Positions 37,353 to 62,100 of a stretch of 64,000 nucleotides of DNA are shown here, piece after piece (position 1 is the stretch's first letter; every line of letters starts with the position of its first letter). Under the pieces are notes generated by a model, which worked only from the letters and a program-made list of their open reading frames with translations, did not search any database and was not told the origin of the DNA. Made by a program: the position numbers and the translations under genes. The stretch is taken from contig JAWKNG010000005.1 of the NCBI GenBank assembly GCA_041391845.1, positions 17,381 through 81,380 of the forward strand, given 5' to 3'. The DNA comes from Flavobacteriales bacterium. Lineage in GTDB: Bacteria; Bacteroidota; Bacteroidia; Flavobacteriales_F; PHOS-HE28.

Positions 37353-38603
37353 TCACCGTGGTGAAGCCGCAGGGACCGGGGGTGCGGCTGATGCCGGCCC
37401 AAGGAACGCGCTCCACAGCATCGCCATGAGCAGGGTCAGGCTGAGCACCTTGTAGTGGTCGAAGACCCAGCCGTACTCTCCGAGCAGCAGATGCGCATTG
37501 AAGCCAAGGAGGACGAAAAGCGCAGCGATCATGGCGGGGCGTGTGGGTCGGCCATGAGCGATCAGGCTGGCGCAGAGATGGAACAACAGCGGCAAGGCGA
37601 ACAATACGGAGTAGTTCTGCTGGTGGGGAAAGATGAGCGGAACGCAGGCCAGCAGATAGCCCACCTCCCAGGCCCGATGGGCTTCGGAAGGGGCTGGTCG
37701 GAAGGGTGGGGTGCGCAGGAACCACAGCATGGACAAGACCAGGATCAGGCGCGCGGCCAGCAGCGGGAGGGACAAGGCTGCCGGTTCCAACGAAAGCACG
37801 CGCCGTGCCAGCGGAACGCCGTGGTCGTTCACAGTGCTATCGCCGAAGTACGCGGAAACCACGCTCCCCAGGGATACGAAATCCGGCTCCTCATCATCCA
37901 ATTGATGCTGTTGTTGCGCGGGATCGAGCAGGGCCCAGCGTGTGCGGAGCAGCTCCTGTTGAAGGGTGCTCCCGATGAAGGGGATGGGAAGCGCCCCCAT
38001 CAACACGAGAAAGAGCGGCACGCGCAGGAGGGTGCGCCATTCGGAACGATAGGCCAGATAGGGCACCATCACCAGGGGCAGCAGCTTCAGATCGATCCCG
38101 GCAGCGAGCAGCAAGGCGGCGAACGTGGCTCGGCCACGCAGCGCCTGATGCAACACCTCCATGCAGCACCAGCAGAGCAGGATGGTGGACTGCGCCGCAT
38201 TGAGGTTGTCGCGCACCGCTTGGAGGGACAGGAGCGCCACAGCAGCATGCACCCACGACCGGTGTCGGAGCGGCAGCAGGGCCACGCCGGTCCATCGCTC
38301 CAGGAGGACGTGCATCCGAACCAGCAGGGCCAGCTGTAGGAGCCCCCACAGCAACTGCATGGTCCAGAGCGGGAAGGCGTTGAACGCACCGAGCAGCAGC
38401 GCGAAGGGGACCCCGTAGTAATACGCGTAACCATCCCGATAGCGTTCCAGGAAGATGTTCCTCCCTTCCAGCAGCGCGGATGCGGCATCCCTGAAAATGT
38501 GCATGTCGTTCAGGTTCCCGAGCGACAGCAGGAGCGTGACCAGCTGGAAGAGCGCCACGACCACCAGCAGCAGCAACGGCACACGAGCTTCGCGGATGTT
38601 CAT
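37353..38603 (-). CDS. Polytopic membrane protein, DUF2029/GT87-like (GT-C fold glycosyltransferase candidate)
   Basis: At least 10 predicted TM segments. An N-terminal loop with DMHIFRDAA...YAYYYG resembles the GT87/DUF2029 family. Confidence 0.55.
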   Translation of the reverse strand: MNIREARVPLLLLVVVALFQLVTLLLSLGNLNDMHIFRDAASALLEGRNIFLERYRDGYAYYYGVPFALLLGAFNAFPLWTMQLLWGLLQLALLVRMHVLLERWTGVALLPLRHRSWVHAAVALLSLQAVRDNLNAAQSTILLCWCCMEVLHQALRGRATFAALLLAAGIDLKLLPLVMVPYLAYRSEWRTLLRVPLFLVLMGALPIPFIGSTLQQELLRTRWALLDPAQQQHQLDDEEPDFVSLGSVVSAYFGDSTVNDHGVPLARRVLSLEPAALSLPLLAARLILVLSMLWFLRTPPFRPAPSEAHRAWEVGYLLACVPLIFPHQQNYSVLFALPLLFHLCASLIAHGRPTRPAMIAALFVLLGFNAHLLLGEYGWVFDHYKVLSLTLLMAMLWSAFLGPASAAPPVPAASPR

Positions 38604-39729: not shown

Positions 39730-40509
<780 letters not shown>

Positions 40510-40540
40510 AGGCCTGTACCTTCGGCACGACCGCTCCCTC

Positions 40541-41710
40541 ATGCGCACCCTGAAGAAGCTCCTGCTCTGGACCATCGTGCTGATCGGTGGCCTCATCGCC
40601 CTGGCCTACCTCACCGGCAACGACCACATCCCCCGCGGCGTACGCTACACCTACCTCATCGGTCGCACCAGCCCGGAGATCGACGATCGCGACTTCTTCC
40701 CCTACGCCACCATCCCCGCCGAGCAGCCACGACCCTGGCCGCAGAGCACCCGCTACGGTCGGCTCGCGCTCACACCGGAGCAGGAAGCGAAGCTGAAGGA
40801 GTTGCACAGTGTGGGATTCGCCGTGTTCCAACACGACAGCCTCGTGTTCGAGCAGTACTGGAGCGGGTGGGATGCCGACAGCGTGAGCAACAGCTTCAGC
40901 GTGGCCAAGAGCTACATCAGCCTGCTCACGGGCATCGCCATGAAGGAGGGCCGCATCAGCAACGTGTTCCAGCCGGTCGGCGACTTCCTGCCGGAGTACA
41001 AGGAGGGCTGCTACAGCAAGATCACCCTGTGGCACCTGCTCACCATGAGCACCGGGCTGGACTGGAGCGAGAGCGGCGCCGATCCCTTCAGCGACAACGC
41101 CAAGGGCTACTACGGCACCAATGTGCGCGAACTAAGCCTTTCGCAGCCCTGCCGGGACGAGCCGGGTACGAAGCTCGATTACATCAGCGGCAGCACGCAG
41201 ATCATGGCCGAGGTGCTGGAAGCAGCCTATGGCCGCCAACTGGACGACCTGGTACGCGAAAAGATCTGGACCCCGCTGGGCTGCGAGCATCCGGCCTACT
41301 GGGGCAAGGACCGCAGCGACGGCGACTTCAAGGCCTTCTGCTGCCTGTACGCCACCGCTCGTGACTTTGGGCGGATCGGTCAACTCTACTTGGACAGTGG
41401 GCGCTGGCAAGGCCGGCAGCTCATCGATACCGAATACTGGCAGGCCTCGCTGACCCCGGCCGCCATCACCGACAAGGACGCCCCCAACCAGCGCTACGGC
41501 TACTTCTGGTGGCTGGCCGAGCTGGATGGGCAGCCCGTGTGGTACTGCCGCGGCTTTCACGGCGAGTATGTGGTGGTATTGCCCGCCGACGACCTGGTGC
41601 TGGTACGTACCGGCATGAAGCGCGAAGAGGTGAACGAACGCGGCCACCCCACCGATGTCTTCGCCTGGATCGCGATCGCACGTGAACTGGCCGGACGTGG
41701 CGTTCAGTAA
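40541..41710 (+). CDS. Serine hydrolase of the beta-lactamase/transpeptidase-like superfamily (membrane-anchored)
   Basis: N-terminal TM segment, an S-x-x-K motif (SVAKS) and YxN-like downstream elements. Confidence 0.7.
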   Translation: MRTLKKLLLWTIVLIGGLIALAYLTGNDHIPRGVRYTYLIGRTSPEIDDRDFFPYATIPAEQPRPWPQSTRYGRLALTPEQEAKLKELHSVGFAVFQHDSLVFEQYWSGWDADSVSNSFSVAKSYISLLTGIAMKEGRISNVFQPVGDFLPEYKEGCYSKITLWHLLTMSTGLDWSESGADPFSDNAKGYYGTNVRELSLSQPCRDEPGTKLDYISGSTQIMAEVLEAAYGRQLDDLVREKIWTPLGCEHPAYWGKDRSDGDFKAFCCLYATARDFGRIGQLYLDSGRWQGRQLIDTEYWQASLTPAAITDKDAPNQRYGYFWWLAELDGQPVWYCRGFHGEYVVVLPADDLVLVRTGMKREEVNERGHPTDVFAWIAIARELAGRGVQ

Positions 41711-41738
41711 CTGCCGCCATTGCGCACCTTTGCGGCAG
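41711..41738 (+). terminator. Possible hairpin CTGCCGC-N14-GCGGCAG immediately after the serine hydrolase stop
   Basis: 7-bp inverted repeat with no U-tract. Confidence 0.2.
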
Positions 41739-41760
41739 CGCCTCGGGCGAAAGCGAACAC

Positions 41761-42165
41761 ATGCAAAAGGATATTGAGCGCCCCTTGGTACAGGATGTGG
41801 CCATGGCTGTGGTCCGTGAACTGGATGAGGAGGGTGAGGAGGCCTGGTACGTCTATCTGGTGAATCTGCGTGATGAGGCCCTGGAGAACGTGCTGGTCAG
41901 CTCACGCGGGTATGGCGAGATGGCCGGTGAGGCACGGCGCACCAGCGAAATGCGCCACTTCCTGGAGCACCTCGGCCCCCGTAGCTGGGCGCGCATCGAA
42001 CGCATCGTGGAGGATGTCTTCGCGCTGAACAACCAGTATTGGCTCAGCTTCTACCTCCGTGGGGCACTGTACGACCGCAAATACATCTTCGTGGCAGGGA
42101 GCATCGAAGAGACCAACTTCACCACCGTGCCACTGATGGAGAAGCGGGGGGTGATGATCGTGTGA
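41761..42165 (+). CDS. Hypothetical cytoplasmic protein (134 aa), first gene of a four-gene operon
   Basis: I recognised no motif. It ends 34 nt before the next gene. Confidence 0.45.
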   Translation: MQKDIERPLVQDVAMAVVRELDEEGEEAWYVYLVNLRDEALENVLVSSRGYGEMAGEARRTSEMRHFLEHLGPRSWARIERIVEDVFALNNQYWLSFYLRGALYDRKYIFVAGSIEETNFTTVPLMEKRGVMIV

Positions 42166-42198
42166 CCCATGGACGCGAGCCATCGTTCATCCCCTGCC

Positions 42199-43257
42199 AT
42201 GGTCGCCTGGCCCTTGCTCCTGCTGGCCCTGGCCGCCTGCGGAAGCCGGGACCAGCATATCCCCCCGCCGATCGCGGCCACCGATGTGGCCACCCGCACC
42301 TTCGGGGACGACGCCCCCTTCGACCAGGCCTGTGCCCACCGCAGCAGTGCGCAATTCATGGTGGGCACCCGCACCATCATTCCCAACCTGCACTGGGACA
42401 TGGAGGACAGCGCGGAACCCGGCCGGCTCAGCGACGCGCATGCCTACAGCGGCCGTCGCTCCATGCACATCCCCGACGACATGGAGTACAGCCCCGGCGT
42501 GTGCCGCCTGGTGAAGGACGTGGCTGACACCCTCCAGCACATCAGCACAGGTTTCTGGTCCTATTCCGAGGAGGACAGCCTCCGCCTCACACTGGTGATC
42601 ACCATCAAGCGTGGCGAGGAGCAGCTGCATTGGTTCGGCAAGGACGTACGCCGGGACGAGTACACACCCGGCCGATGGCAGCGCTTCAACGCTTCCTTCC
42701 CTGTGGATGGCAGCACGTTCACGGGAGAGGAGCGCATCTGCCTGTACCTCTGGAACCGCGCAGGCAGCGAACTCTTCGTGGACGATTGGGACCTGGTGTT
42801 CCGCAGCACCCGGATCCCCGGGTGGCGCGCTGCGCCCGGGATCGATCTGGAGCAGGCCGCACGAACACGTGAAGCGCTGCCCTTCGTCAAGATCGACCAT
42901 GTCCGTTCGGCGGATCCGGTGGCACATGGGATCAGGGTGGGTGGCCCGGTACCGCCCGTGACAGCAGTTCCGGTCGCCATGCCCGGACCTGCAGGACACA
43001 CCCTGCACCTGGCGGAAGGCGCCGCCGTGGGACTCCTGCGCGATCGCTCCGGCAAGGCCAAAGGCCTGTTCCGTGCGTGGCATCCGCTCATCGGCCGCGA
43101 CCTCTTCACCTTCGAGCGATGCCACCTGGAAGCTGCGGAGGATGGCATCCTCATCATCGCACACGATGTGGACACCGACCCGACGAGCGGACTTCCCATC
43201 GTGGCGGCCGAACCGGCACCGCTGGCCTACGTGGTCCAACTCGAAGCCCACCCATGA
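42199..43257 (+). CDS. Hypothetical lipoprotein (352 aa)
   Basis: Lipobox LLALAACGS. Its stop overlaps the next ATG (ATGA). Confidence 0.55.
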   Translation: MVAWPLLLLALAACGSRDQHIPPPIAATDVATRTFGDDAPFDQACAHRSSAQFMVGTRTIIPNLHWDMEDSAEPGRLSDAHAYSGRRSMHIPDDMEYSPGVCRLVKDVADTLQHISTGFWSYSEEDSLRLTLVITIKRGEEQLHWFGKDVRRDEYTPGRWQRFNASFPVDGSTFTGEERICLYLWNRAGSELFVDDWDLVFRSTRIPGWRAAPGIDLEQAARTREALPFVKIDHVRSADPVAHGIRVGGPVPPVTAVPVAMPGPAGHTLHLAEGAAVGLLRDRSGKAKGLFRAWHPLIGRDLFTFERCHLEAAEDGILIIAHDVDTDPTSGLPIVAAEPAPLAYVVQLEAHP

Positions 43258-45134
43258 ACCTGCGCGTCCTCCTCAGCTTTATGTCCGTCCTGCTGTTCGC
43301 AGCCTGTGCGCATGAAGAACGGACGGATGCCGCCGTGATCGACCGGGTGGACTGGCTGGTGAACATGCCGGCCGCAGAGAACGGTGTGCTCACGCTGGAG
43401 CTCGACTACCAGGACGCCATCGACAGTGGCTTCGTCATTCCCAGCGGCCGACAGGCGGAAGGGGGGCGCTTCACCTGCCGGTTGACGCCCGGACCCGATG
43501 CTGTGCCGGGCGGCGGCGTCCGCTACAAGATCTACTACAAGAACGACTCCTACCGCTTCCCGCATGGCACGTCGGAAGGGGCGCAGCACCCCCTTGCCCA
43601 CGAGAACTTCTACGGCAGCTGGGAGCGCGCGTCGGAAGGCTTCCGCAGCAGTGGACCACTGGCGGATGACGCCGTGATCGAGCTCGCCTTCCGCATCCAT
43701 GGCGACCCGCGTGAAGAGCCCCAGTACCGCGATGCGGAAGGCCGTTCGCTGCGCTGGGCGCGCAACCCCCGCGTGGGGCGCTATTCCTTCATGCTGGTGG
43801 CCATGAGCGAGGAGCGTTTCGCCGCGATCGAGCTCCCCGAAGCCGTGGTTAACATCGGCATACCGGACAGCGCCGGGTTCATCGACCCCTTCTGGTACTG
43901 GAAGGAAGGGCCAGGTTCCGCCCTGCCAGGCGTACAGGTGGTGGAAGCCCCTGTGCAGGTGCATGTGCAGGCACGGCCCGACCTGGGGGCCGGCATCCAC
44001 ATCCCCCCCCCCGCTCCAGAGCAGGCTTTCACCGCCACCTGCGGCAGCACCGAGGAGCTCAGGAAGCAGGCCCCCTTCGAACAGTTCATACACTACGTGG
44101 ACCCCTCCACCCGCTTCGCCAACATCCCCCTCATCGCCGACATCCTGGGCAACGAATACACCCCGGAGGACCACGACCATTACCGCGCCTTCTTCCCCCC
44201 CGAGGAGATGGTGACGCTCCGCCCCATGACCACCGCCACCCCTTGCGCCACGGTGAGCAGCGATCCGGAACGGGGCTCCATCCTGCTGCGCAATCCCGCC
44301 AGCACGCCCAGCGACATGCGCAAGGAGAACGTGGGTGTGCGCTCCCGCCATGGCCTGGCCTATGGACGCTACCAGGTGAAGTGCAAGCTCACGCGGCTGC
44401 TCAACGACTCGGACATGTGGGTGGGGCTCACCAACGCCATCTGGCTCATCTATGACGGTGCGCCGGGCTGCCTGCGCAGGCCCTGCGAAAAGGACGGCTA
44501 CCTGGCCAACTACTATGGCGGCGATGGCGATCAGCGCGTGCCCCGGGTGGCGTACTCAGAGATCGACTTCGAGATCCTGAAGACACCGGCCTACTGCCCC
44601 GACATGTCCTTTCCGCCTACCTACCCACAACAACTGGCCGATCATGGGGACCGCAACGCCTGGGCCTACAGCAGCAGTGACGCCCGCATGGACAGTCCCG
44701 GCATGATCACCGTGGCATGCACCAACTGGGACATGGCCTGCCACGAGCCGGAAGCGTTCAGCGCCGGTTGCCACACCCTGGAAAAGAACGGACGGACCTA
44801 CCTGAACCACCGCTGGAGCACGGATTACCGCGCCGTGACACAGAAGGTGGAGGAACTTGATGCCACGCTCTTCGGCGGCAGCCACTACTGGTTCGAGATC
44901 GACTGGCGGCCGGAGGAGATCATCTGGCGGATCGGCCCGGAGCGCGACCAACTGCACGTTGTCGGCTACATGGACCGCAGCATCACCGAGATCAGCAATG
45001 TGCAGATGCACCTGATCGTGACCCAGGAATACCACAACACCCGCTGGTGGCCGGGCACACCCTACGACCAGGGCTACATCCCCTTCCCCTCCAGGGAACT
45101 GGTCGGCGAGATCATGGAGGTCATCATCGAATGA
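43254..45134 (+). CDS. Lipoprotein with C-terminal GH16-like (concanavalin-A-like glucanase fold) domain
   Basis: Lipobox LLFAACAHE. The C-terminal half carries the GH16 pattern: YGRYQVKCKL, GLTNAIWLI and the catalytic-type ExDxE (SEIDFEILK), followed by YWFEIDWRPEEIIWRIG. The N-terminal ~300 aa are unassigned. Confidence 0.55.
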   Translation: MNLRVLLSFMSVLLFAACAHEERTDAAVIDRVDWLVNMPAAENGVLTLELDYQDAIDSGFVIPSGRQAEGGRFTCRLTPGPDAVPGGGVRYKIYYKNDSYRFPHGTSEGAQHPLAHENFYGSWERASEGFRSSGPLADDAVIELAFRIHGDPREEPQYRDAEGRSLRWARNPRVGRYSFMLVAMSEERFAAIELPEAVVNIGIPDSAGFIDPFWYWKEGPGSALPGVQVVEAPVQVHVQARPDLGAGIHIPPPAPEQAFTATCGSTEELRKQAPFEQFIHYVDPSTRFANIPLIADILGNEYTPEDHDHYRAFFPPEEMVTLRPMTTATPCATVSSDPERGSILLRNPASTPSDMRKENVGVRSRHGLAYGRYQVKCKLTRLLNDSDMWVGLTNAIWLIYDGAPGCLRRPCEKDGYLANYYGGDGDQRVPRVAYSEIDFEILKTPAYCPDMSFPPTYPQQLADHGDRNAWAYSSSDARMDSPGMITVACTNWDMACHEPEAFSAGCHTLEKNGRTYLNHRWSTDYRAVTQKVEELDATLFGGSHYWFEIDWRPEEIIWRIGPERDQLHVVGYMDRSITEISNVQMHLIVTQEYHNTRWWPGTPYDQGYIPFPSRELVGEIMEVIIE

Positions 45135-47452
45135 GCGCCATCACCGACCTCCGCAAGGGTGCCCTCCTTGCATTGGTGCTGGGCCTGCTCGCCCTGCTCC
45201 TCTTCCACCGCACCGCATTGCTGGCGCCCAACAGCTACATGGCGGCCATCGGCGGCGATGGGCTGAAGAACTACTTCTCCTATGCCTGGCACGTGGAGCA
45301 CGACACGGCGGCCACCGTGTTCTCCGGTATGAACGCACCCTTCGGCGAGCACATCAACTACCCGGACGCCCAACCGTTGCTGAGCGATCTGCACCGTGCG
45401 GTGGATGCGGTGTGGACCGGCAGCGACCGATACAGCGTGGGCGTGGTGAACCTGCTGATGCTGCTGAGCCTGCCCGTCTGTGCGCTGCTGCTCTTCCTGG
45501 TGCTGCACCGGTCGGGCATGCCCTGGCACCTGGCAGCGATCGCAGGTGTTGCGCTCGCCCTGTCCACCGTACAGGGCCTGCGCTCCGTACAGGCGCATTA
45601 TGCGCTGGCCTACACCTGGGCCCTTCCCCTGGCCATCTGGGCCGGCCTTCGCCACTGGACGCACCCACGGCCCTGGCGCTCCGCATTGCTCATTGTCGCG
45701 GTCCTGCTGGCACTTTTATCCATCCATGTGTACCTGGGCTTCATCGGCAGTGCGCTCCTGCTCGCATGGTCCATGATCGGGATCGCTGGTAGTGCCGGCC
45801 GTCTGCAGAAGCTGACCGCACTGGCAGCCCCCGTAGTGGCCCTGCTCCTGTTCCAAGGCTTCACCAAGCTCACGGACACACACACCGACCGCACCGAACA
45901 TCCCACGGGCTTCTTCGATTACCAGGCCAACGCCCGCACGCTGCTCGTGCCAGACCACCAGTGGATCAGCCCGCTGGGCCGGCTCCTGCCCGGGGCGCCC
46001 GCCACCGAGGTGGCCGAGAACTGGGCCTACCTGGGCCTGGGCACGCTCCTCATGGCCGCCATGCTGGTGGTGTCCGCCGTGGTGTACGTGGTGCGCGAGC
46101 GGGGAGCGGGTCTATCCAGGCAGCTGACCAGGGTCTTCGACCCGCACGGGCTCGGCGGGCTGTTCCTGGCGTCCATCCCCTTCCTGCTGATCGCCCTGGG
46201 CATGCCGTTCAACGATGGCAATGAGTCCTTGCTGTGGGACACCCCCGTGTTCCGCCAGTTCCGTGCACCAGGGCGCTTCGCGTGGGCCTTCTTCTATGCA
46301 CTGGGACTTTTCGTGGCGTGGCGCTGCTGGCGGCTCTTCGAGGCAGGGAGGGCGATGCGGTCCCTGGGCATCGTCGGCCTGGTGCTCGGCATCGGACTGC
46401 AGCTCTACGAGGGAAGCTACATCCAGGCCTTCATCGGTCGTGAGTTCGTGAAGAGCAGCAACCTTTTCCGGCGCGAACAACTAAGCCCTGAGGAACAGCG
46501 CCTGGTGGACCGCGTGCGGCGGGAAAAGGCCGTGGGCATCGCAAGCATCCCCTATTTCCACAACGGCTCTGAGGAGTTCCTCATTCCCGTGCACGAGGAG
46601 GGCCTGCGCGTGGGGCAGCTGGTGGCCTACCACACCGGGCTGCCAATGATGTCCTCCTCGCTCACCCGTACCGGGCTGGAAGAGGTGCGCGCCGGTATCT
46701 CAGCCTTCGGGCCCAGCTGGTACCCGCGCCCAACGCTGCCGCACTGGCGCGGGGAGGACAGCCTGGTGATCCTCGCCTTCGACGACAAGCGCGCCGATGC
46801 CGACCATGCGATCATGGCCCGTTCTGTGCTCTTGGACCGGGTGGGCAGTGTGCAGGTGGCCAAGATCGCCGTGAAGGACCTCCTGCGGGATGAACGCGCC
46901 AGCACACGCCAGAAGAAGATCGCCGAACTGGCGTCATCCTACAAAAGCGGCTCGTGGTACTTCAGCAGGCCCGACACCTTCCTGTTCCACGACTCCTTTG
47001 AAAGCGGCTCCAGCCCGCATGTTCTGGCGGGCGCTGGAGCGCTCGCCGGAGCACACGGCACCTTCACCCAGCTGGCCGAATTCCCGCCCAACACCTTCCA
47101 AGGCGACCGGCAATATCTGGCCTCCTTCTGGTATTACAACCGGGGTGCCATGCGCTGCCATGCGCTCGCCGGCATCGACGAGTTTGACGAAGCGACCGGG
47201 CAGGGCTACTGGGACCACTACACGAACCCCCGCTTCAGCCGCACCTTGGTGGGCGATTGGAGTTTGGTGGAGATCCCCTTCACCGTGCGCGACCCCCAGA
47301 ACCGTATCAAGGTGTTCGTGGATCGCTTCTGGTATCAACCACTGGATACGGTGTTCGTGGATGAACTGCTGGTGCGGCAGGCGGATGTGAGCGTGCTCCG
47401 CTACGATGCCGATTCCACCCTGTGGTGGAACGGGCATCCGCTGCGGAAATAG
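45131..47452 (+). CDS. Large polytopic membrane protein (774 aa), YfhO/GT-C-like candidate, with C-terminal soluble domain
   Basis: More than 10 predicted TM helices in the first ~420 aa, then a ~350-aa extracytoplasmic domain. Its ATG overlaps the previous stop (ATGA). Confidence 0.55.
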   Translation: MSAITDLRKGALLALVLGLLALLLFHRTALLAPNSYMAAIGGDGLKNYFSYAWHVEHDTAATVFSGMNAPFGEHINYPDAQPLLSDLHRAVDAVWTGSDRYSVGVVNLLMLLSLPVCALLLFLVLHRSGMPWHLAAIAGVALALSTVQGLRSVQAHYALAYTWALPLAIWAGLRHWTHPRPWRSALLIVAVLLALLSIHVYLGFIGSALLLAWSMIGIAGSAGRLQKLTALAAPVVALLLFQGFTKLTDTHTDRTEHPTGFFDYQANARTLLVPDHQWISPLGRLLPGAPATEVAENWAYLGLGTLLMAAMLVVSAVVYVVRERGAGLSRQLTRVFDPHGLGGLFLASIPFLLIALGMPFNDGNESLLWDTPVFRQFRAPGRFAWAFFYALGLFVAWRCWRLFEAGRAMRSLGIVGLVLGIGLQLYEGSYIQAFIGREFVKSSNLFRREQLSPEEQRLVDRVRREKAVGIASIPYFHNGSEEFLIPVHEEGLRVGQLVAYHTGLPMMSSSLTRTGLEEVRAGISAFGPSWYPRPTLPHWRGEDSLVILAFDDKRADADHAIMARSVLLDRVGSVQVAKIAVKDLLRDERASTRQKKIAELASSYKSGSWYFSRPDTFLFHDSFESGSSPHVLAGAGALAGAHGTFTQLAEFPPNTFQGDRQYLASFWYYNRGAMRCHALAGIDEFDEATGQGYWDHYTNPRFSRTLVGDWSLVEIPFTVRDPQNRIKVFVDRFWYQPLDTVFVDELLVRQADVSVLRYDADSTLWWNGHPLRK

Positions 47453-47458
47453 CCGGGT

Positions 47459-48181
47459 CTACAGCCCGTACTTCACAATGCACCAGATGGCGCGGAAACC
47501 GTCCTTCCAGCCTATCTTCTTGCCCTCTGCATACGTGCGGCCGTAGTAGCTGATGCCCACTTCGTAGATGCGGATACCGGGCACCCGTGCCAGCTTGGCG
47601 GTCACCTCTGGCTCGAACCCGAAGCGCCGCTCGCGCAGGTCGAGCCCCTTGGCGATGTCGCTCCGGATCAGCTTGTAGCAGGTTTCCATGTCCGTCAGGT
47701 TCAAGTTGTTGAACGCGTTGGACAGGAAGGTCAGGAACGTGTTGCCGATGCTGTGCCAGAAGAACAGGATACGGTGGGGGTGATGGCCCATGAAGCGCGA
47801 ACCATAGACCACGTCGGCAAAGCCTTCCACCACAGGCCGAAGCAGGTCGTTGTATTCACGTGGGTCGTACTCCAGATCCGCATCCTGCACGATCAGGTAT
47901 TCGCCCGTGGCCTCGTGGATGCCCCGGTGGATGGCCGCTCCCTTGCCCATGTTGCGGGGCTGGTCATAGAACTTGATGCCCATGGAGGGATGGGTATCCA
48001 TATAGCGGCGCACGGCCTCCACTGTACCGTCCTTGGAGCCATCATTCACAATGATCACCTCCTTGGCAATGCCGTTCATCAGCTCCACGGCACGCACCTT
48101 GTCCAGGATCAGATGGATCGTACGCTCCTCGTTATAGGCCGGGATGATGATGGACAGGTTGCGCAACACTGGGTTGGTCAT
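47459..48181 (-). CDS. GT2 polyprenol-phosphate sugar synthase (Dpm1/ArnC-like)
   Basis: [32 protein letters not shown] (DxD). 240 aa, the typical size for Dpm1/ArnC-like enzymes. Confidence 0.85.
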
Positions 48182-48216: not shown

Positions 48217-49779
48217 TCATAGCGGAGGCTGAACAAAGCTCTCATTTCCCGTTTCAAGATATTGAACGCGAGATGGCAGCAACGCACGAAGCTCATCCGA
48301 AGGGTTCACAACGATGATGCGACGCCCCTTCTGTATGAGGAGCGCTGTTCGCTCGGGATCGGGAGTGCCGGGGATCACTTGATGGCCGTGGAAGAACATC
48401 ATGGTCAGATTGGCAGGAAAAGGAACATTATAGATGATGGCGTGTCCTTGTGTCCCATCGATCTCCGATGCAAGGCGATCCATGACACGTAGGTTCTGGA
48501 GATGGGCCGACCTGTACACCGAATAGAACGGGTCGAGCTTTGCCTGTGCCGTGTGGGTGCGCTGCAACCGCTCCAACTGGAACAAGGCGCCCGCACTCAC
48601 GGCCACCGCGAGGACCAGCCATGTTCGGCTCAGCGAATAGGGTCGAGTGACCAATGCAAGCAAATGGGCGAGCCCTATGAAGAAGAAGCCGATCACCAGC
48701 ATGGGATAAGCATGCATCTTGGTAGCTGCCAACGTATACACCATGTACGTGACCACAACGCTGGTGATGGCCATGATCCTCATCCTCCGCTCCCGGCACT
48801 GGGTGACTGAAAGCAGCAAAGCACCGAACATCAGCAACGATGGGAACGGCTGGAACTGCTCCACCAAGGAATGATAGTAGAACCAATGGTCTCCCACATG
48901 ACCCTCCACCGCCTCCCAGAGGTGCAGGGAGTTGAATGACATTTCGTGGGCCATTTCCACTGGGAAACGGACCCAGGCGCTGATCTGCCAGGGAGCCGCT
49001 AGCAACACCGCGACCGCCAGCGCGATCAACAAGGCTTTCAGCTCCTGCCTTCGATCTCCAGTACCCAGTAGGAAGATAAGCGACCATCCACCGAAAAGCA
49101 GCGCCCCCGGAAGCCATTTCGTGAGAAGAGCCGATCCAACGAAACACCCGGCCACGACCGCCCACCGAAGCTTCCTTGACCGATCCCATTCACTCCACGC
49201 CCAAAAGGAACCTCCCACAAGGGAAATGAATACAGCATTGTTATGGTCGGATAACACACCACCAAGACAAAGGATCAAGAACCAATGTGACCATGCCATC
49301 AGGAACGCAGCATGGAAGGCCGTGTCCTTGTCATGCATGCTGCGGGCAAGGCGATAGGTGAAGAATACCAATGCAGTGGTGAACAGAGCGCTCGGCAGGC
49401 GCAAGGCGAACACCGAATAACCCAGCACACGTAGTGACAGAGAGATCATCCAAAGGAAAAAAGGCTGCTTGTGAAGCCAGACATTGTTCAAGGTCCACTC
49501 CTTGTGATCCAGGCCGAGTTCCGTATCCGTGAAGAGCATCGGTGTGAAGGGATGTTCCACCATGTTGCGGGCAACAACGGCATGAACACATTCATCCCAA
49601 ATGTTCAGGAAGGGATCCAACTGGATGGCCATCAAGCGCAGGGTCAGTGCCGCCAGCAACACGAGACCCAAAGCGGTTCGTTCCTGCGACCTATGCCATA
49701 GCACCAAGCCCAGTACCGACAGCAGGCAGGCCAACGCTATGGCAAGCTGCGCAGATGGGTCAAAGTAGGAGTCGAACAT
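48217..49779 (-). CDS. GT-C fold glycosyltransferase, PMT_2/ArnT-like (GT39/GT83-like)
   Basis: N-terminal loop DE motif (NIWDECVHA) and HKQPFFLW, which resembles the KPPL-YW motif of the family. About 12 TM segments. Confidence 0.7.
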   Translation of the reverse strand: MFDSYFDPSAQLAIALACLLSVLGLVLWHRSQERTALGLVLLAALTLRLMAIQLDPFLNIWDECVHAVVARNMVEHPFTPMLFTDTELGLDHKEWTLNNVWLHKQPFFLWMISLSLRVLGYSVFALRLPSALFTTALVFFTYRLARSMHDKDTAFHAAFLMAWSHWFLILCLGGVLSDHNNAVFISLVGGSFWAWSEWDRSRKLRWAVVAGCFVGSALLTKWLPGALLFGGWSLIFLLGTGDRRQELKALLIALAVAVLLAAPWQISAWVRFPVEMAHEMSFNSLHLWEAVEGHVGDHWFYYHSLVEQFQPFPSLLMFGALLLSVTQCRERRMRIMAITSVVVTYMVYTLAATKMHAYPMLVIGFFFIGLAHLLALVTRPYSLSRTWLVLAVAVSAGALFQLERLQRTHTAQAKLDPFYSVYRSAHLQNLRVMDRLASEIDGTQGHAIIYNVPFPANLTMMFFHGHQVIPGTPDPERTALLIQKGRRIIVVNPSDELRALLPSRVQYLETGNESFVQPPL

Positions 49780-49897: not shown

Positions 49898-50554
49898 TTA
49901 CACCTCCATCTCCGGCACCTCCCCCTCCACCACCAGCCGTCCCTCGGTCTTCGCCTGTATCTCCTCCACGCTCACGCCCGGCGCACGTTCCAGCAGTTTG
50001 AAGCCGTTCGGTGTCACCTCGAACATGCCCAGGTCGCTGACGATCTTCTTCACGCAGCCCACACCGGTGAGCGGCAGGGTGCACTGCTTCAACAGCTTGC
50101 TCTCACCAGCCTTGTTGGTATGGAGCATGCACACGATGATGTTGTCCGCACTGGCCACCAGGTCCATGGCGCCGCCCATGCCCTTCACCATCTTGCCGGG
50201 GATCTTCCAATTGGCGATGTCGCCGGTGTCGCTCACCTCCATCGCACCCAGCACGGTGAGCTGCACATGCTGCCCGCGGATCATGGCGAAGCTGGTGGCA
50301 CTGTCGAAGATGGCCGCGCCGTCCTTCAGCGTCACCGTCTGCTTGCCCGCATTGATCAGGTCGGCATCCTCTTCACCCTCAAAGGGGAAGGGGCCCATTC
50401 CCAGGATGCCGTTCTCGCTTTGCAGCTCCACGCTGATGCCGGCGGGAATGTAGTTGGCCACCAAGGTGGGTATGCCGATGCCCAGGTTCACGTACCAGCC
50501 GTCCTTCAGTTCGCGCGCGATGCGCTGGGCCATTTGTTCCTTCGTCAGGGCCAT
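49898..50554 (-). CDS. scoB: 3-oxoacid CoA-transferase subunit B
   Basis: The sequence has the pattern of the CoA-transferase beta subunit throughout ([18 protein letters not shown]). Confidence 0.9.
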
Positions 50555-50557
50555 GGG

Positions 50558-52369
50558 TCAATGGGGTTCAGGTGTGCGAAGTTCGTCATCCGTGGACATC
50601 CGCAGCATGCGCGAACGAACCTCCTGTCGTTCCAGGACCTGCCGCCTTGGGTTGTACAGGTACACCACCAAGGACCGTGCAGCTTCCACAGCCGGTATCC
50701 AACGTCGGAAGCGGATGCGATCGGTGCCTGGTGCAGTGTGTCGCGCTCGCAGTTCAACCCGGTCCACCTGCACCGCCTGTCCATCACCACCCCGCAGTTC
50801 GATCACGACCTCTGCTGAGAGCAGCTCATCCGCACAGTGCAACATCAGCTCCAGCTCCAAGCAGCGCAGGCCGGGACCGAAGCGCTCGGCGGGCTCGTTC
50901 CACAGGTCCTGGAACTCCGCATCGCTGGCGGCCGCGTTGAAGCTGGTGTCCAAGAGAACGCTCAGCTCAATGGGAGCCATCCGCTCGAACAGGACCTGCC
51001 TGCCCGCCCTGCTACCCACCACGGCCAGATAGCCGTGCGGCACTTCGAAATAGCCGGTATCCACCAGCAGCAGGTCGTGGTACGCGGCGGGGTGGCCGTT
51101 CGGGTCCAGCACCGGCACTGCAATGCCTGCCATGCGCGCCTGAACATCCCAGACGGGCACCATCTGCCGGTAAGCGCCCACGCTCAGGATCCCCTCTGAG
51201 GCAGCAGCACGTTCCGCTACAGCACGATACTGCGCCAGCTCAGCCGACTCTTCCGGCCAACTGAGGGTGCGGGCCGGATGCCATGCCCGCAGCGCCAGGA
51301 GCGGCGGCAGAAGAAGCGGCACCACGCCCACCCAACTTAGCCACGAACGCCGCACAACGGGCAGGTCCGAGGCAAATGCGATGACGAGCAACGCGAGCGG
51401 CACCAGGTGCAGGGCCGTACGGTCGATGGGGTATAGCGTTCCCCACATCACGTGCATCAGCGTGCGGCCCACCACTTCTGCACTGAGCAGCGCGGCCACC
51501 AGCACCAGCGGACGGATAGCGGCTTCCCTGCCCTGTCGCAGCAACGTGTGGATGGCGACCCCCAGGGCCAGCAACACGGGCACCAACAACGACCAGCGCG
51601 CAGCATCCATATCGGTGCCGAGCAGGGGACGCGTGAGCGATGCGAGCGTACCATTCACCCACCCGGCATCGCTGCCGTAATAGAGCGCGCCGCGTTCCGA
51701 AAGGCCTTGTCCATATCGCACCGCAAGGAGCATGGGAGCGGCCCCAAGCACCAACCACTGCATGGCCAGAACGGCGCGGCGCAGGCCGCGCTGCACAACG
51801 ATGACCGGCAGCACCAGTGCGAGCATCATCAAGCCGAGCAGGGTGCCGTTGAGCGAGCACCACGTACCCAGCGCCACGGCCACCAACAAGGGCCACGGTC
51901 GCTCCTGGCGCGGTGCGGCCATGAAGGCCAGCAAGTGATGGATCGCCATCGCATGGAAGGCGAGCGCAGGTCCATAGCCACGGAACAACGAGAAGAAATC
52001 GAGCAGGAACGGCGTACCGATCCACGCTGCGCGGAAGGACCACGCGATGGTGGATGCCTTGATCCAGGTGCCAAGCCGCCAACCGTACCACGCGTATACG
52101 ACGAAGGAGAGCACAGGGAAGAGCCGCAGCACGATGGGCGCTTCACCGAAGAGCTGCTCGATGCACCACGCCACAGCGGTCACCAGCACGTGGTTGCCCG
52201 CGTCCCACTGCGCATGGAAGGGCAGGAAGTCGCCGCTGAGCACGTACACCAGCCAGGTGCGGGCCTCATCGTGCACCAAGGGAATCTGCCACGCACGCCA
52301 CAGCACCAGCATGCCCACCAGCGCCGCCAGTGCCGCATACAGCAAACCGGGGCGGCGCAGGACGATCAT
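50558..52369 (-). CDS. GT-C fold membrane glycosyltransferase-like protein (PMT_2/ArnT-like), lying between scoA and scoB
   Basis: More than 10 TM helices. HDEARTW loop motif near the N-terminus, then a C-terminal soluble domain. Confidence 0.6.
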   Translation of the reverse strand: MIVLRRPGLLYAALAALVGMLVLWRAWQIPLVHDEARTWLVYVLSGDFLPFHAQWDAGNHVLVTAVAWCIEQLFGEAPIVLRLFPVLSFVVYAWYGWRLGTWIKASTIAWSFRAAWIGTPFLLDFFSLFRGYGPALAFHAMAIHHLLAFMAAPRQERPWPLLVAVALGTWCSLNGTLLGLMMLALVLPVIVVQRGLRRAVLAMQWLVLGAAPMLLAVRYGQGLSERGALYYGSDAGWVNGTLASLTRPLLGTDMDAARWSLLVPVLLALGVAIHTLLRQGREAAIRPLVLVAALLSAEVVGRTLMHVMWGTLYPIDRTALHLVPLALLVIAFASDLPVVRRSWLSWVGVVPLLLPPLLALRAWHPARTLSWPEESAELAQYRAVAERAAASEGILSVGAYRQMVPVWDVQARMAGIAVPVLDPNGHPAAYHDLLLVDTGYFEVPHGYLAVVGSRAGRQVLFERMAPIELSVLLDTSFNAAASDAEFQDLWNEPAERFGPGLRCLELELMLHCADELLSAEVVIELRGGDGQAVQVDRVELRARHTAPGTDRIRFRRWIPAVEAARSLVVYLYNPRRQVLERQEVRSRMLRMSTDDELRTPEPH

Positions 52370-52370
52370 C

Positions 52371-53069
52371 TCAGCGCTTGCGCACCGTGCGTTGCTCGAT
52401 GCGCTTCTCGTAGTTCACACCTTGGAAGATGCGCTGCACGAAGATGCCCGGTGTGTGGATCTCGTCCGGATCGAGCTCACCGGGCTCCACCAGGTGCTCC
52501 ACTTCAGCCACGGTGATCTTGCCGGCCATGGCCATCATGGGATTGAAGTTGCGGGCCGTGCGCTTGTAGACCAGGTTCCCCAGGCGATCGCCTTTCCAGG
52601 CCTTCACCAGCGCGAAGTCGGCGCGGAGCCACTCTTCCAGCACGTACATCTTGCCGTGGAATTCGCGCGTCTCCTTGCCCGCCGCCACTTCGGTGCCGTA
52701 GCCCGCGGGGGTGAAGAAGGCGGGAATGCCAGCACCACCGGCGCGGCAGCGCTCGGCCAGTGTTCCCTGGGGGATCAGCTCCACCTCCAGTTCGCCGCTC
52801 AGCATCTGCCGCTCGAATTCGGCGTTCTCACCCACGTAGCTGCTGATCATTTTGCGGATCTGCTTGGTCTGCAGCAACAGGCCCAGGCCGAAGTCGTCCA
52901 CCCCCGCATTGTTGCTGATGCAGGTGAGGCCCTTCACGCCGCTCTTCACCAGTGCGTTGATGCTGTTCTCCGGGATCCCGCACAGGCCGAAGCCACCCAC
53001 CATCAGGGTCATGTTGTCCGCGATCCCGTGCAGTGCTTCTGCGGCATTGGCCACCACCTTGTTCATCAT
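52371..53069 (-). CDS. scoA: 3-oxoacid CoA-transferase subunit A
   Basis: MMNKVVANAAEALHGIADNMTLMVGGFGLCGIPE... matches the alpha-subunit pattern. Confidence 0.9.
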   Translation of the reverse strand: MMNKVVANAAEALHGIADNMTLMVGGFGLCGIPENSINALVKSGVKGLTCISNNAGVDDFGLGLLLQTKQIRKMISSYVGENAEFERQMLSGELEVELIPQGTLAERCRAGGAGIPAFFTPAGYGTEVAAGKETREFHGKMYVLEEWLRADFALVKAWKGDRLGNLVYKRTARNFNPMMAMAGKITVAEVEHLVEPGELDPDEIHTPGIFVQRIFQGVNYEKRIEQRTVRKR

Positions 53070-53153
53070 CGTCGTTGCTTGGGATGCGAAGTAAATCCAA
53101 TTCCCACTTGGGTGCCGCACTGAGGAACAGCGCACAGTGCTGGGACGCTCCCC

Positions 53154-60837: not shown

Positions 60838-62100
60838 ATGCCCGTTCGCGTCCCTTCGCTCCGCTGGCTGGTGCTGCTTGCTGTGGTGTTGCGACTGGCC
60901 TTCGTGGCCCACCATGCATCACGAGGCTGGCAACTACAGTACGACGCCGGCTATTACCTCACCCTCGCACAGCACCTTTCGCACGGGGTATACAGCCTCT
61001 ACCACCCACTGGACATCCCCGACACCACGCGGATGCCCGGCTACCCCTGGTTGATCCACCTGCTGGGCAGCTCCGTTCCGGCCGTGCTTCTGCTGCAGGT
61101 CCTGCTCAGTGCGGCCAACGTGGTGCTGGTACATCGCCTCGCAGCAGCCATCGGTCTCCCACCGCGCGGGGCGTGGCTCGCCGCTGTGCTCATGGCCCTC
61201 GAGCCCATGGCCATCGTGTTGAGCGGCAGCCTGCTCACCGAAACCTGCTTCACCACGGCCCTGCTGGGCGGCACTCTTCTGCTCCTGCAACGCCCGCCCA
61301 CGTGGCGCACCCTCGTGGGCGCAGCGCTGTGTTTCGCAATGGCTGCGTGGTTGCGCGCCAACGGCCTCTTGCTCGGGCTCGCTGCAGTGGGCATCGCAAC
61401 TGTGGTGCTGCGCCTTCCGGTGCAGAAGGGACTGGTATGTGCCGCTATGACCGTACTGTTGGTGACCCCCTGGGTATTGCGCAACCACGCAAGCACCGGG
61501 CGTTGGATGCTATCGGACAGCGGCCCCGTGGCAGCCGCACACTTCCACCTTCCCGAGGTGCTCGCCGCAGCCCACGATCCACACGCCCGAACTTACCGGC
61601 AGGAGCTCCATGAACGGGCCGCACGCACGGATTGGGAGGACCGCACGGCCGCAGCTACATACTTCGACGGACTTCGGAAAGATCTACGCCACATCTTCCT
61701 GGCCCATCCGCTCGCTTGGAGCGCCGTCCAGCTTCGCACAGCGGTGGGCATTCTTGTAGCGCCCGGTCGCGGGCACATCGCCAATCACTTTGGCATGGGA
61801 CCACTGGCGAAAGCCGTCAGCGGTTGGTCAATGCTGTACAGCGTGTTGCTGGTGTGTACCATCCTGATCTGCCTGCTCCGTTGGCGGCGCCTGCCTGTGG
61901 ATGTAGTGGTCCTGTTATTGCTCGCCGGTGCGATCATCTGGAGCGGAGGGATCTCCACCACCGACACACGCTTCAAGGCACCAGGGATGCCGTTGTTGCT
62001 GGTCTGCGCCGCATGGGCCGTAACAGCGATCGGCTCGGCACGGTTTGCGATCAAAGGCGGTACGCCAGGGCCAGTACCAAACCCAGCAAGACCACGGTGA
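60838..62100 (+). CDS. GT-C fold glycosyltransferase, ArnT/PMT_2-like
   Basis: N-terminal loop YDAGYYLTLAQHLSHG...PDTTRMPGYPWLI. About 11 TM segments. Confidence 0.6.
   Translation: MPVRVPSLRWLVLLAVVLRLAFVAHHASRGWQLQYDAGYYLTLAQHLSHGVYSLYHPLDIPDTTRMPGYPWLIHLLGSSVPAVLLLQVLLSAANVVLVHRLAAAIGLPPRGAWLAAVLMALEPMAIVLSGSLLTETCFTTALLGGTLLLLQRPPTWRTLVGAALCFAMAAWLRANGLLLGLAAVGIATVVLRLPVQKGLVCAAMTVLLVTPWVLRNHASTGRWMLSDSGPVAAAHFHLPEVLAAAHDPHARTYRQELHERAARTDWEDRTAAATYFDGLRKDLRHIFLAHPLAWSAVQLRTAVGILVAPGRGHIANHFGMGPLAKAVSGWSMLYSVLLVCTILICLLRWRRLPVDVVVLLLLAGAIIWSGGISTTDTRFKAPGMPLLLVCAAWAVTAIGSARFAIKGGTPGPVPNPARPR

Follow-up and report, generated by a model that had tools for sequence, protein, structure and literature searches.

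A conserved lipoprotein pair with a GH16-like domain, together with a GT-C-fold partner, suggests a possible new glycan pathway of the cell envelope in Bacteroidota

The locus described here raises the question of whether a GH16-like lipoprotein encoded among tightly packed genes serves to degrade food or to act on a glycan of the cell envelope, and which of the adjoining genes belong with it. The window, i.e., the whole 64,000-nucleotide stretch of Flavobacteriales DNA that was analyzed, contains four co-directional plus-strand genes (G1 to G4, spanning 41761 to 47452 in the ORF list) that had been read as one operon. Both of the ATGA stop/start overlaps claimed in this original prediction, between G2 and G3 and between G3 and G4, are present in the sequence (Table 1). 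G1 ends at 42165, and G2 may start either 3 nt downstream (42169), as implied by 362-aa close homologs, or at 42199. Overlaps of 4 nt are frequent in bacterial operons and in themselves unremarkable, and a promoter/terminator scan of the plus strand with a tool that has no Bacteroidota promoter model gave scores no better than those of shuffled sequences. The comparison set comprised 82 non-redundant related loci, of which 49 had full flanks, 77 could be scored for the G2-type/G3 junction, and 70 could be scored for the gene after G3. The G2-type/G3 junction was an ATGA overlap in 25 of the 77 loci, with a gap of ≤10 nt in most others, and the G3/G4 junction was ATGA in 9 of the 12 loci with a G4-type gene. 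These tight junctions are conserved, not accidental, and the claimed tight coupling of G2, G3, and G4 was borne out.

Table 1. Positions of the genes, domains, and sequence features discussed in the text (numbering of the window)
Feature	Position	Strand	Remarks
G1, 134-aa cytoplasmic protein	41761..42165	+	ORF; adjoins the module, not a member
G2, lipoprotein, 362 or 352 aa	42169 (alternative start 42199)..43257	+	Lipobox LALAAC, one G2-type domain, clade-specific C-terminal part
G2-type domain of G2, ~150 aa (aa ~55-215), putative CBM4/9/22-like beta-sandwich	42380..42845	+	
ATGA stop/start overlap, G2/G3	43254..43257	+	Read directly from the sequence
G3, 626-aa lipoprotein	43254..45134	+	Signal peptide and lipobox, N-terminal region aa ~28-354, GH16-like domain aa ~355-626
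GH16-like beta-jelly-roll domain of G3	44316..45131	+	~70-residue Cys-rich insertion past the catalytic strand
EIDFE (E436, D438, E440), candidate GH16 catalytic motif ExDxE	44559..44573	+	Invariant in 110 sequences
ATGA stop/start overlap, G3/G4	45131..45134	+	Read directly from the sequence
G4, 773-aa predicted GT-C-fold glycosyltransferase	45131..47452	+	Membrane domain aa 1-~440 and periplasmic C-terminal region
D43 of G4 (GDGLKNY), candidate catalytic base	45257..45259	+	First extracytoplasmic loop
C-terminal CBM-like beta-sandwich of G4	46940..47449	+	Homologous to the G2-type domain; aa ~604-773
Short GT2, 240 aa, predicted polyprenyl-phosphate sugar synthase	47459..48181	-	Convergent with G4; 6 nt between the two stop codons
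PMT_2/ArnT-like GT-C glycosyltransferase	48217..49779	-	PF13231 E=1.4e-15; ArnT equivalog E 5e-7
603-aa polytopic membrane protein	50558..52369	-	C-terminus (50606-50926) is a G2-type domain

Not all four genes travel together. A G2-type gene lies directly 5' of G3 in every locus having upstream DNA: all 49 with full flanks, and 78 when the whole set of 82 is counted. The position after G3, however, is occupied by a polytopic membrane enzyme that acts on an extracytoplasmic substrate in 31 of the 70 scored loci: a G4-type protein in 12, an MBOAT protein in 11, a sulfatase/LtaS-type enzyme in 5, and others in 3. As only 12 of the 70 loci have G4 after G3, the G3-G4 link is lineage specific; the conserved core is the G2-type protein with G3, and G4 is a clade-specific, exchangeable partner. 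G1 was ruled out as an operon member. Its homolog stands directly 3' of a beta-lactamase-family gene (40493 to 41710 in the window) in 18 of the 18 loci that have G1, lies 5 to 9 kb away from G3 in distant genomes (L003, L044, L046, L053, and L069), and is absent from L001-type loci, while sister genomes carry an exonuclease-like gene between G1 and G2. G1, which had no Pfam, NCBIfam, or PDB match, is the partner of the upstream beta-lactamase-family gene and stands outside the module. For annotation, the functional unit is thus G2-G3, with or without an exchangeable membrane enzyme, and not the four-gene block.

The claim of two lipoproteins is supported by the lipoboxes of G2 (LALAAC, followed by G; kept in 5 of 5 close homologs) and G3 (LLFAAC, followed by A). 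In G3, the lipid-anchor Cys18 (43305 to 43307) is invariant in 110 homologs, with S, G, or A at position -1, and acidic residues are rare at positions +2 to +6 (no D or E in 61 of the 110 sequences). The same 110 sequences, with identities down to ~43%, share 75 invariant columns across orders and seven invariant Cys residues besides Cys18. At least 785 homologs were found, every one named hypothetical; relatives occur in 343 species genomes, and the best 80 of these 343 are all MAGs. The AF2 model of G3 (pLDDT, 92.8; pTM, 0.91) contains the beta-jelly-roll (concanavalin-like) fold of clan GH-B in its C-terminal domain, preceded by a strictly conserved N-terminal region of ~330 aa. This region gave only GH16 matches in a Foldseek search against PDB and was negative against the G2-type domain in hhalign (0.4%).

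The GH16 match reported earlier holds for the motifs (YGRYQVKCKL, GLTNAIWLI, EIDFE, and EIDWRPEEIIW are all found in G3) and for the fold, which agrees, but it does not extend to the Pfam profile PF00722, which did not match the window G3 at E≤1. The profile matched 35 of 71 G3 family members at that cutoff; among seven members inspected, only P0050 exceeded the gathering threshold (25.7 versus 22 bits), and in the four inspected matching members the match covered only profile positions 109 to 160, the strands after the catalytic one. Likewise, hhalign of the G3 family with a Bacillus lichenase (approximate query sequence) aligned only the DWxPxxIxW strands. The assignment of G3 to GH16 is therefore best described as a resemblance in fold and motifs. 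EIDFE (aa 436 to 440) is the sole ExDx(x)E in G3 and lies within a predicted beta-strand (436 to 442), and the motif together with a near-complete fold alignment suggests that it is the equivalent of the GH16 catalytic strand. Compared with GH16 enzymes of the clan (lichenases, laminarinases, and the XTH and Crh transglycosylases), G3 has only 9 to 19% identity and differs by the Cys-rich insertion, the conserved N-terminal region without known relative, its strict association with a CBM-like anchor protein, and a gene context that is biosynthetic, not catabolic. Current CAZyme surveys would miss G3, since standard GH16 HMMs do not see it.

The second member of the core contributes a domain that reappears in its neighbors. 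The G2-type domain is rare, with 196 cluster representatives among 1.84 billion, and only ~16 full-length G2 relatives are found in the same set. The domain is also located at the C termini of G4, of the 603-aa protein, and of other membrane enzymes that adjoin G3 elsewhere. In hhalign, it matched the G4 C terminus at 89%, the C terminus of the 603-aa protein of the window at 76%, the homolog families of the latter at 98 to 99%, a 648-aa polytopic protein at 95.5%, and a sulfatase/LtaS-type enzyme at 94.9%. Sub-threshold CBM4/9/22-like matches, together with the fold similarity of the homologous domain in G4, suggest that it may be CBM4/9/22-like and bind carbohydrate.

G4 is a large polytopic protein as predicted, with a length of 773 aa and not 774 aa. 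In its model, TM1 is formed by helix 2 to 31 and the last TM helix ends at about residue 439, leaving ~334 extracytoplasmic residues, in line with the domain of ~350 aa proposed previously. The model shows the polytopic fold common to PMT, STT3/PglB, ArnT, and Aft enzymes, with the protein O-mannosyltransferase Pmt4 as the top fold match and AftA, AftD, AftB, and PimE also among the matches. At the sequence level, G4 resembled none of the solved GT-C enzymes. D43, K46, and N47 are conserved in ≥90% of 40 sequences, and D43, which lies past TM1, has a positional precedent in D31 of ORF12/GT136 (PMC11127046). A C-terminal CBM for binding of the acceptor glycan is also on record in GT-C enzymes, namely ORF12/GT136, EmbA-C, and AftD (PMC11127046). 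Precomputed annotation assigns PF19830 (DUF6311) to 38 of 39 G4 homologs, and hmmscan with the 2025 Pfam release gave no match for G4 (E≤0.1) or for the 95%-identical P0121 (E≤1); a literature search on DUF6311 returned nothing. Overall, Pfam and NCBIfam searches with G1 to G4 gave zero matches, and sequence searches of PDB, run with individual proteins as well as with profiles, gave nothing significant. The original reading matched no product outside the GH16-like half to a named family, but G4 can be placed by its GT-C fold and G2, in part, by its CBM-like domain.

The convergent GT2 gene and the GT-C (PMT_2) gene that had been noted next to G4 were both confirmed. The GT2 product matches PF00535 (E=8e-32), its best solved relatives are the Pyrococcus Dol-P-Man synthase 5mlz (E 1.9e-14), GtrB-type sll0501, and ArnC, and its NCBIfam matches are of the AglJ, PpgS, and ArnC types. 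The PMT_2 protein is likely another user of the lipid-linked donor. The 603-aa protein aligned at 97% in hhalign with the L001_631 and L005_658 families, and its family was found near G3 in 12 to 47 of 86 loci, varying with the query member. Of the 49 loci with full flanks, 29 have a Dpm1-like GT2 no farther than 6 kb from G3 (raw count), and 38 have a glycan enzyme within that distance. The GT2 count, together with the pair of a DUF6311-type GT-C and a short GT2 that recurs on its own in Hymenobacter (Hymenobacter taeanensis, CP095056.1, is one carrier), supports the proposed functional linkage of the locus to its GT2 and GT-C neighbors. A 420-aa 7-TM protein of the window (60838 to 62100) showed no link to the locus families in tblastn.

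We consider it somewhat probable that these genes form a periplasmic glycan assembly and remodeling system in which two modules act on one envelope glycan beyond the cytoplasmic membrane; the folds, conserved motifs, gene couplings, shared domain, and synteny described above are the observations behind this reading. The first module would be the conserved core, i.e., a membrane- or lipid-anchored G2 with its CBM-like domain, translationally coupled to G3. G3, as a periplasm-facing lipoprotein that keeps the Glu-Asp-Glu motif in its GH16-like domain, would most likely cleave or transglycosylate a beta-linked glycan bound by G2. The second module would supply and use a lipid-linked sugar: the short Dpm1/GtrB/ArnC-like GT2 is predicted to load the sugar onto polyprenyl phosphate at the cytoplasmic face, and once it has been flipped, G4, the PMT_2 protein, and perhaps the 603-aa protein would, as GT-C enzymes, pass it to an acceptor at the periplasmic face. 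The G2-type domain is located at the C termini of G4 and the 603-aa protein, and therefore these probably have the same glycan target as G2/G3. When the entire window was screened by hydropathy, no small multi-TM ORF was found as a candidate for a flippase of the GtrA, ArnE/F, MATE, or Wzx type near the locus, and no processive synthase or polymerase was identified at the locus. A flippase gene could sit elsewhere in the genome.

An unlikely alternative, though one with several points in its favor, is that the locus glycosylates proteins or lipids and not a polysaccharide, by PMT-like O-mannosylation or ArnT-like modification of lipid A or LPS core, with G3 trimming or editing the glycoconjugates. 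Pmt4 is the top fold match of G4, the neighboring PMT_2 protein matches the ArnT equivalog, the GT2 has Dol-P-Man synthase and ArnC among its relatives, and the arrangement agrees with the three-component modification scheme (PMC11127046). However, the CBM-like domains on G2, G4, and other membrane enzymes favor an acceptor of the glycan-chain kind used by ORF12, Emb, and AftD. Additionally, G3 pairs with other partners in other lineages: Bacteroidales loci combine it with AlgI-like MBOAT and AlgX-domain proteins, and AlgX-domain proteins are found in 24 and MBOAT proteins in 21 of the 82 loci. Such MBOAT and AlgX-type partners are typical of polysaccharide O-acetylation, and GH16 enzymes are endo-acting on polymeric beta-glycans, both of which argue against a protein or lipid acceptor.

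It is more improbable still that G3 serves nutrient acquisition as an ordinary catabolic endo-glycanase of GH16 (laminarinase, lichenase, or galactanase type), with G2 as a substrate-binding helper and the glycosyltransferase neighbors incidental. No neighbor family of SusC/SusD size was recurrent in the 82 loci, and we rejected a PUL on this ground: only one family of ≥850 aa occurred in ≥8 of the 82, a T9SS protein, and 18 unlabelled large ORFs were spread over 16 different loci with no recurrence in neighbor clustering. The acidic surface-export signal is missing after the lipid-anchor Cys of G3, the conservation of G3 is housekeeping-like, and its ~330-aa N-terminal region is not known from catabolic GH16s. 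G3 keeps stable synteny with membrane enzymes of biosynthesis or modification in which the G2-type domain recurs. The further idea that the neighbors have no common function, with the overlaps reflecting compact packing of unrelated envelope genes and the GH16-like domain perhaps a non-catalytic lectin, draws on the commonness of 4-nt overlaps, the hitch-hiker G1, the majority of G3 loci without G4, and the uninformative promoter/terminator scans, but it is very improbable given the universal G2-type/G3 pairing with a junction tight across orders, the same rare domain in G2, G4, the 603-aa protein, and alternative G3 neighbors, and the invariant E436, D438, and E440, which are hard to reconcile with a lectin. 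Anti-phage defense is without support, since PADLOC gave no match.

The reading of assembly and remodeling of one envelope glycan is consistent with the original description of an uncharacterized envelope or glycan-processing module, and literature searches on GH16 with GT-C and Bacteroidetes, or on GH16 with periplasmic EPS, found no description of such a module. Known three-component systems (GtrA/B/C; ArnC/E/F/T; C. youngae ORF15/14/12, GT136; PpgS/Rv3779) likewise place a polyprenyl-phosphate-type GT2 beside GT-C enzymes, and the GT-C plus C-terminal CBM architecture of ORF12, Emb, and AftD is also seen in G4. The present locus differs in that no flippase gene was recognized nearby, several GT-C genes are clustered, and the set is coupled to G3, while the known systems are without a GH16-like lipoprotein. 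Mycobacterial arabinogalactan/LAM assembly (EmbA-C, AftA-D, PimE, and PpgS/Rv3779) shares clustered GT-C enzymes, some with CBMs, and polyprenyl-phosphate sugars from short GT2 synthases, a donor use that is only predicted here; it belongs to another phylum and envelope, and it has no sequence-level homology to the window proteins. Pentofuranose donors are not indicated here. G3 may work like the exopolysaccharide glycosidases and lyases BcsZ, PslG, PelA, AlgL, and PgaB, as an envelope glycanase encoded with the makers or modifiers of its own polymer; for instance, PelA hydrolyzes Pel prior to its export (PMC12022489). Those enzymes differ from G3 in fold family, and at the present locus we recognized neither a synthase nor an export pore nor a c-di-GMP receptor.

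More tentatively, the G2-type beta-sandwich could be a shared targeting tag that brings a GH16-like transglycosylase and varying membrane enzymes (GT-C, LtaS/sulfatase-type transferases, and MBOAT/AlgX acetylation partners) to one undescribed periplasmic or wall-associated beta-glycan of mostly uncultured Bacteroidota, with G3 conserved as the enzyme for cutting, elongating, or cross-linking the polymer. If so, this would establish an envelope-polymer pathway, a GH16-related family, and a GT-C family, all three of them new. If the broader reading of a glycan assembly and remodeling system holds, G2 and G3 represent a conserved, unstudied envelope-glycan enzyme pair in hundreds of Bacteroidota species, largely of lineages from freshwater and wastewater for which MAGs are the sole record, and the shared CBM-like domain offers a simple route to all enzymes acting on the same hidden glycan. 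The G2/G3 pair and the GT-C gene joined to it in this genome suggest an as yet undescribed glycan pathway of the cell envelope and not a food-degrading enzyme. The G4-type GT-C and short GT2 pair is also present in culturable Hymenobacter, which provides an experimental handle on a GT-C family that our Pfam, NCBIfam, and PDB searches placed in no curated or solved family.

The original prediction had described four ORFs read as one operon (G1 to G4), and its observations were borne out, since the same-strand ORFs, the lipoboxes of G2 and G3, the quoted motifs (all within G3) and the ATGA overlaps at G2/G3 (43254-43257) and G3/G4 (45131-45134) were all present. The earliest possible G2 start is 3 nt past the end of G1, and the stop codon of the convergent GT2 gene is 6 nt from the end of G4. 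The interpretation was partly supported and required correction in four respects: the extent of the operon, the role of G4, the membership of G1, and the view that G2 and G4 could not be placed.

Genes of the G2-G3 locus and its surroundings in the window
Feature	Position	Strand	Description
Secreted protein	8120-10714	+	864 aa; Big_5, two lamin-tail domains, T9SS C-terminal signal (CHU_C/FlgD_ig)
GT87 GT-C	37353-38603	-	Pfam assignment
β-Lactamase-family gene with G1	40493-42165	+	own conserved pair; serine hydrolase of 405 aa, N-terminal TM segment
G1	41761-42165	+	134-aa ORF
G2	42169 or 42199 to 43257	+	lipoprotein
G3	43254-45134	+	626-aa ORF, GH16-like lipoprotein
G4	45131-47452	+	773-aa ORF, polytopic
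GT2	47459-48181	-	240 aa, Dpm1-like
PMT_2/ArnT-like GT-C	48217-49779	-	gene next after GT2
CoA-transferase subunit	49898-50554	-
603-aa polytopic protein	50558-52369	-	C-terminal G2-type domain
CoA-transferase subunit	52371-53135	-
PBP1a	53154-55562		next after the CoA-transferase region (49898-53135, -)
Polytopic protein	60838-62100	+	420 aa, 7 TM segments, no Pfam match

The core of the locus is G2-G3 rather than all four genes. Scanning one genome per species, we found relatives of G3 in 343 genomes, and the best 80 were all Bacteroidota MAGs (Flavobacteriales, Bacteroidales, Marinilabiliales, and other orders). Eighty-six loci (82 nonredundant) were translated in six frames and searched with the window proteins and with neighbors from three reference loci. 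In 80 of the 86 fetched loci, a gene whose product has one or two G2-type domains terminated no more than 400 nt from where G3 begins. When every G2-type gene in the vicinity of G3 was counted, one was present in 78/82 nonredundant loci and in all 49 whose flanks reached 6 kb or more; the loci lacking one were those missing upstream DNA. The G2-type protein is the universal partner of G3; it measures 330 to 390 aa in the window's clade and 540 to 760 aa elsewhere, and it has either a membrane anchor at the N terminus or a lipobox. The G2-type/G3 junction was ATGA in 25/77 related loci, with a gap of no more than 10 nt in most of the remainder, and the G3/G4 junction was ATGA in 9 of 12. Such overlaps are everyday operon features, yet here they are conserved.

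What follows G3 is exchangeable, and G4, which had been taken as a fixed member, is one of several partners. Among 70 loci in which the same-strand gene after G3 was tallied, this gene encoded a G4-type GT-C enzyme in 12, all in the window's Flavobacteriales clade, an AlgI-like MBOAT in 11, a sulfatase/LtaS-type enzyme in 5, another polytopic protein in 3, and a GT2 in 1. A saccharopine-dehydrogenase-like gene, probably unrelated, followed in 12 loci, a small ORF of no known kind in 9, and nothing recognizable in 17. A Dpm1-like GT2 lay within 6 kb of G3 in 29/49 loci, and a glycan-modifying enzyme of some type did so in 38/49. AlgX-domain proteins occurred near G3 in 24/82 loci and a 1,480-aa T9SS protein in 20/82. 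In L005, L049, and some 20 further Bacteroidales-type loci the genes ran in a recurring order, with the AlgX-domain protein first, followed by the 1,480-aa T9SS-secreted protein (with FlgD_ig and a Por C-terminal tail), the G2-type protein, G3, and finally an MBOAT or a sulfatase-type enzyme. No SusC/SusD-size family recurred beside G3 among the neighbors across the 82 loci, and hence there was no PUL signature.

G1 was ruled out as a member of the module. It directly followed a β-lactamase-family gene in 18/18 loci having G1, lay 5 to 9 kb from G3 in distant genomes, was absent from one Flavobacteriales subclade, and was separated from G2 by an exonuclease-like gene in three sister genomes (L008, L009, and L022). 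It had no informative match in Pfam, NCBIfam, or the PDB; one homolog bore a weak precomputed DUF4909 label that could not be reproduced.

Pfam and NCBIfam scans of G1 to G4 gave no matches, and a PDB sequence search was likewise empty. The G3 family is large and strongly conserved, with at least 785 full-length proteins at 43 to 84% identity, every one named hypothetical (the record 100% identical to G3, P0001, is 'MAG: hypothetical protein R2817_12240'), and 75 invariant columns in an alignment of 110 sequences. An AlphaFold2 model built from the family alignment was confident (pLDDT 92.8, pTM 0.91). EIDFE is the sole ExDx(x)E motif in G3 and sits on a predicted β-strand, and E436, D438, and E440 are invariant in all 110 sequences. 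The GH16-like domain lies at the edge of detection by sequence: PF00722 matched 35/71 family members at an E value of ≤1 and did not match the window G3, and among seven members whose scores were inspected only P0050 exceeded the gathering score. In the four inspected members that PF00722 matched, its coverage was confined to strands that follow the catalytic strand, and G3 has approximately 70 extra Cys-rich residues between the catalytic strand and the DWxPxxIxW strands. The N-terminal ~330 residues matched nothing in Pfam or the PDB; their mean identity to the window protein was 0.42 to 0.46, versus 0.59 for the rest, and their conservation is about that of the rest. The lipobox Cys18 is invariant, and under the Bacteroidota lipoprotein export-signal rule, the infrequency of acidic residues at positions +2 to +6 suggests that G3 faces the periplasm and is not surface exposed.

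Both G2 and G4, previously regarded as unplaceable, could be placed at the fold or domain level. G2 is fast evolving: a word-indexed search gave only 4 close homologs, and an exhaustive HMMER search gave 196 cluster representatives among 1.84 billion, about 16 of them full length. Its conserved portion is a central domain of ~150 aa, whose profile (A5) weakly matched CBM22 (E = 0.073) and Pfam CBM_4_9 (4/25 members, best E value of 4.8e-4). With hhalign, A5 matched the CBM-like C terminus of G4 (probability, 83 to 89%), and C-terminal G2-type domains were found in the window's 603-aa protein (76%), its homolog families elsewhere (98 to 99%), a 648-aa polytopic protein (95.5%), and a sulfatase/LtaS-type membrane enzyme (94.9%). 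The G2-type domain is a rare one common to several extracytoplasmic enzymes; the G3 N-terminal region is unrelated to it.

The G4 model was also confident (pLDDT 93.3, pTM 0.92). D43, at least 90% conserved, lies in the first loop past TM1, the position of the catalytic Asp of GT-C enzymes (PMC11127046), and for the GT-C enzymes ORF12/GT136, EmbA-C, and AftD, binding of the acceptor glycan by a C-terminal CBM is documented (PMC11127046). G4 had 39 detectable homologs (P0121 to P0159), 38 with a precomputed PF19830 (DUF6311) label. Our own hmmscan of G4 (E ≤ 0.1) and of the 95%-identical P0121 (E ≤ 1) against the 2025 Pfam copy did not reproduce the label, which may reflect a difference in Pfam version or threshold. 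The nearest solved relatives of the window GT2 were Pyrococcus Dol-P-Man synthase, GtrB-type sll0501, and ArnC. Culturable Hymenobacter carries a GT-C of the G4 family and, after it, a GT2 of 245 aa with 24% identity to the window GT2 (E value of 2e-10). The pair, with a 762-aa DUF6311-type GT-C and the GT2 directly after it, occurs at L087 (8001-11074; Hymenobacter taeanensis CP095056.1) and L089 with no G2 or G3 homologs, and GT-C plus short GT2 is therefore a self-standing unit. Being culturable, H. taeanensis would permit study of the G4 family.

Given these folds, invariant catalytic-type residues, lipoprotein or membrane locations, and conserved gene couplings, a pathway can be proposed. 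GT2 would charge polyprenyl phosphate with a sugar, which the GT-C enzymes (G4, the PMT_2 protein, and perhaps the 603-aa protein) would move at the periplasmic face onto a glycan recognized by their G2-type domain. G2, through putative carbohydrate binding, would bind the same glycan and present it to G3, which may cleave or transglycosylate a β-linkage by a retaining GH16 mechanism with EIDFE as the candidate catalytic motif. The G4-G3 link is limited to one clade, and in other lineages the partners of the G2/G3 core are O-acetylation proteins (MBOAT and AlgX) or transferases of the LtaS type, a pattern easier to reconcile with modification of a single polymer class than with catabolism. No flippase was recognized in a hydropathy screen of the window's small multi-TM ORFs, and no polymerase was recognized in the window. 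The closest functional analogies are three-component periplasmic glycosylation systems (PMC11127046), the GT-C enzymes with CBMs that assemble mycobacterial arabinan, and dedicated periplasmic glycanases of exopolysaccharide machineries, such as PelA (PMC12022489). The GH16-like enzyme, the GT-C with a CBM, and the polyprenyl-phosphate GT2 each resemble a known kind, and none of them is detectable by sequence as belonging to a curated family. In the literature we found no description of an obligate G2-type/G3 pair, of the conserved orphan region at the G3 N terminus, or of one CBM-like tag reused over different membrane enzyme classes.

GT-C-like membrane proteins are unusually numerous in the window (G4, PMT_2, 603-aa, 420-aa, and GT87). 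The PMT_2 gene has a G+C of 0.54 to 0.58, a dip relative to the 0.62 to 0.67 of its flanks. In the 60%-identity locus L001 the corresponding site holds a different PMT_2 gene, and no ortholog of the window gene could be detected there; the dip and the missing ortholog suggest recent replacement or horizontal acquisition. The 603-aa gene splits the two CoA-transferase subunit genes, which adjoin each other in L003, and PBP1a follows this region in distant loci as well. The window's G+C of 63% is unusually high for a Flavobacteriales-labeled genome, and several related MAG records have implausible names (e.g., 'uncultured Chryseobacterium sp.' and a 'Chitinophaga pinensis' MAG). Additionally, the T9SS C-terminal signal of the 864-aa secreted protein confirms that the host uses type IX secretion.
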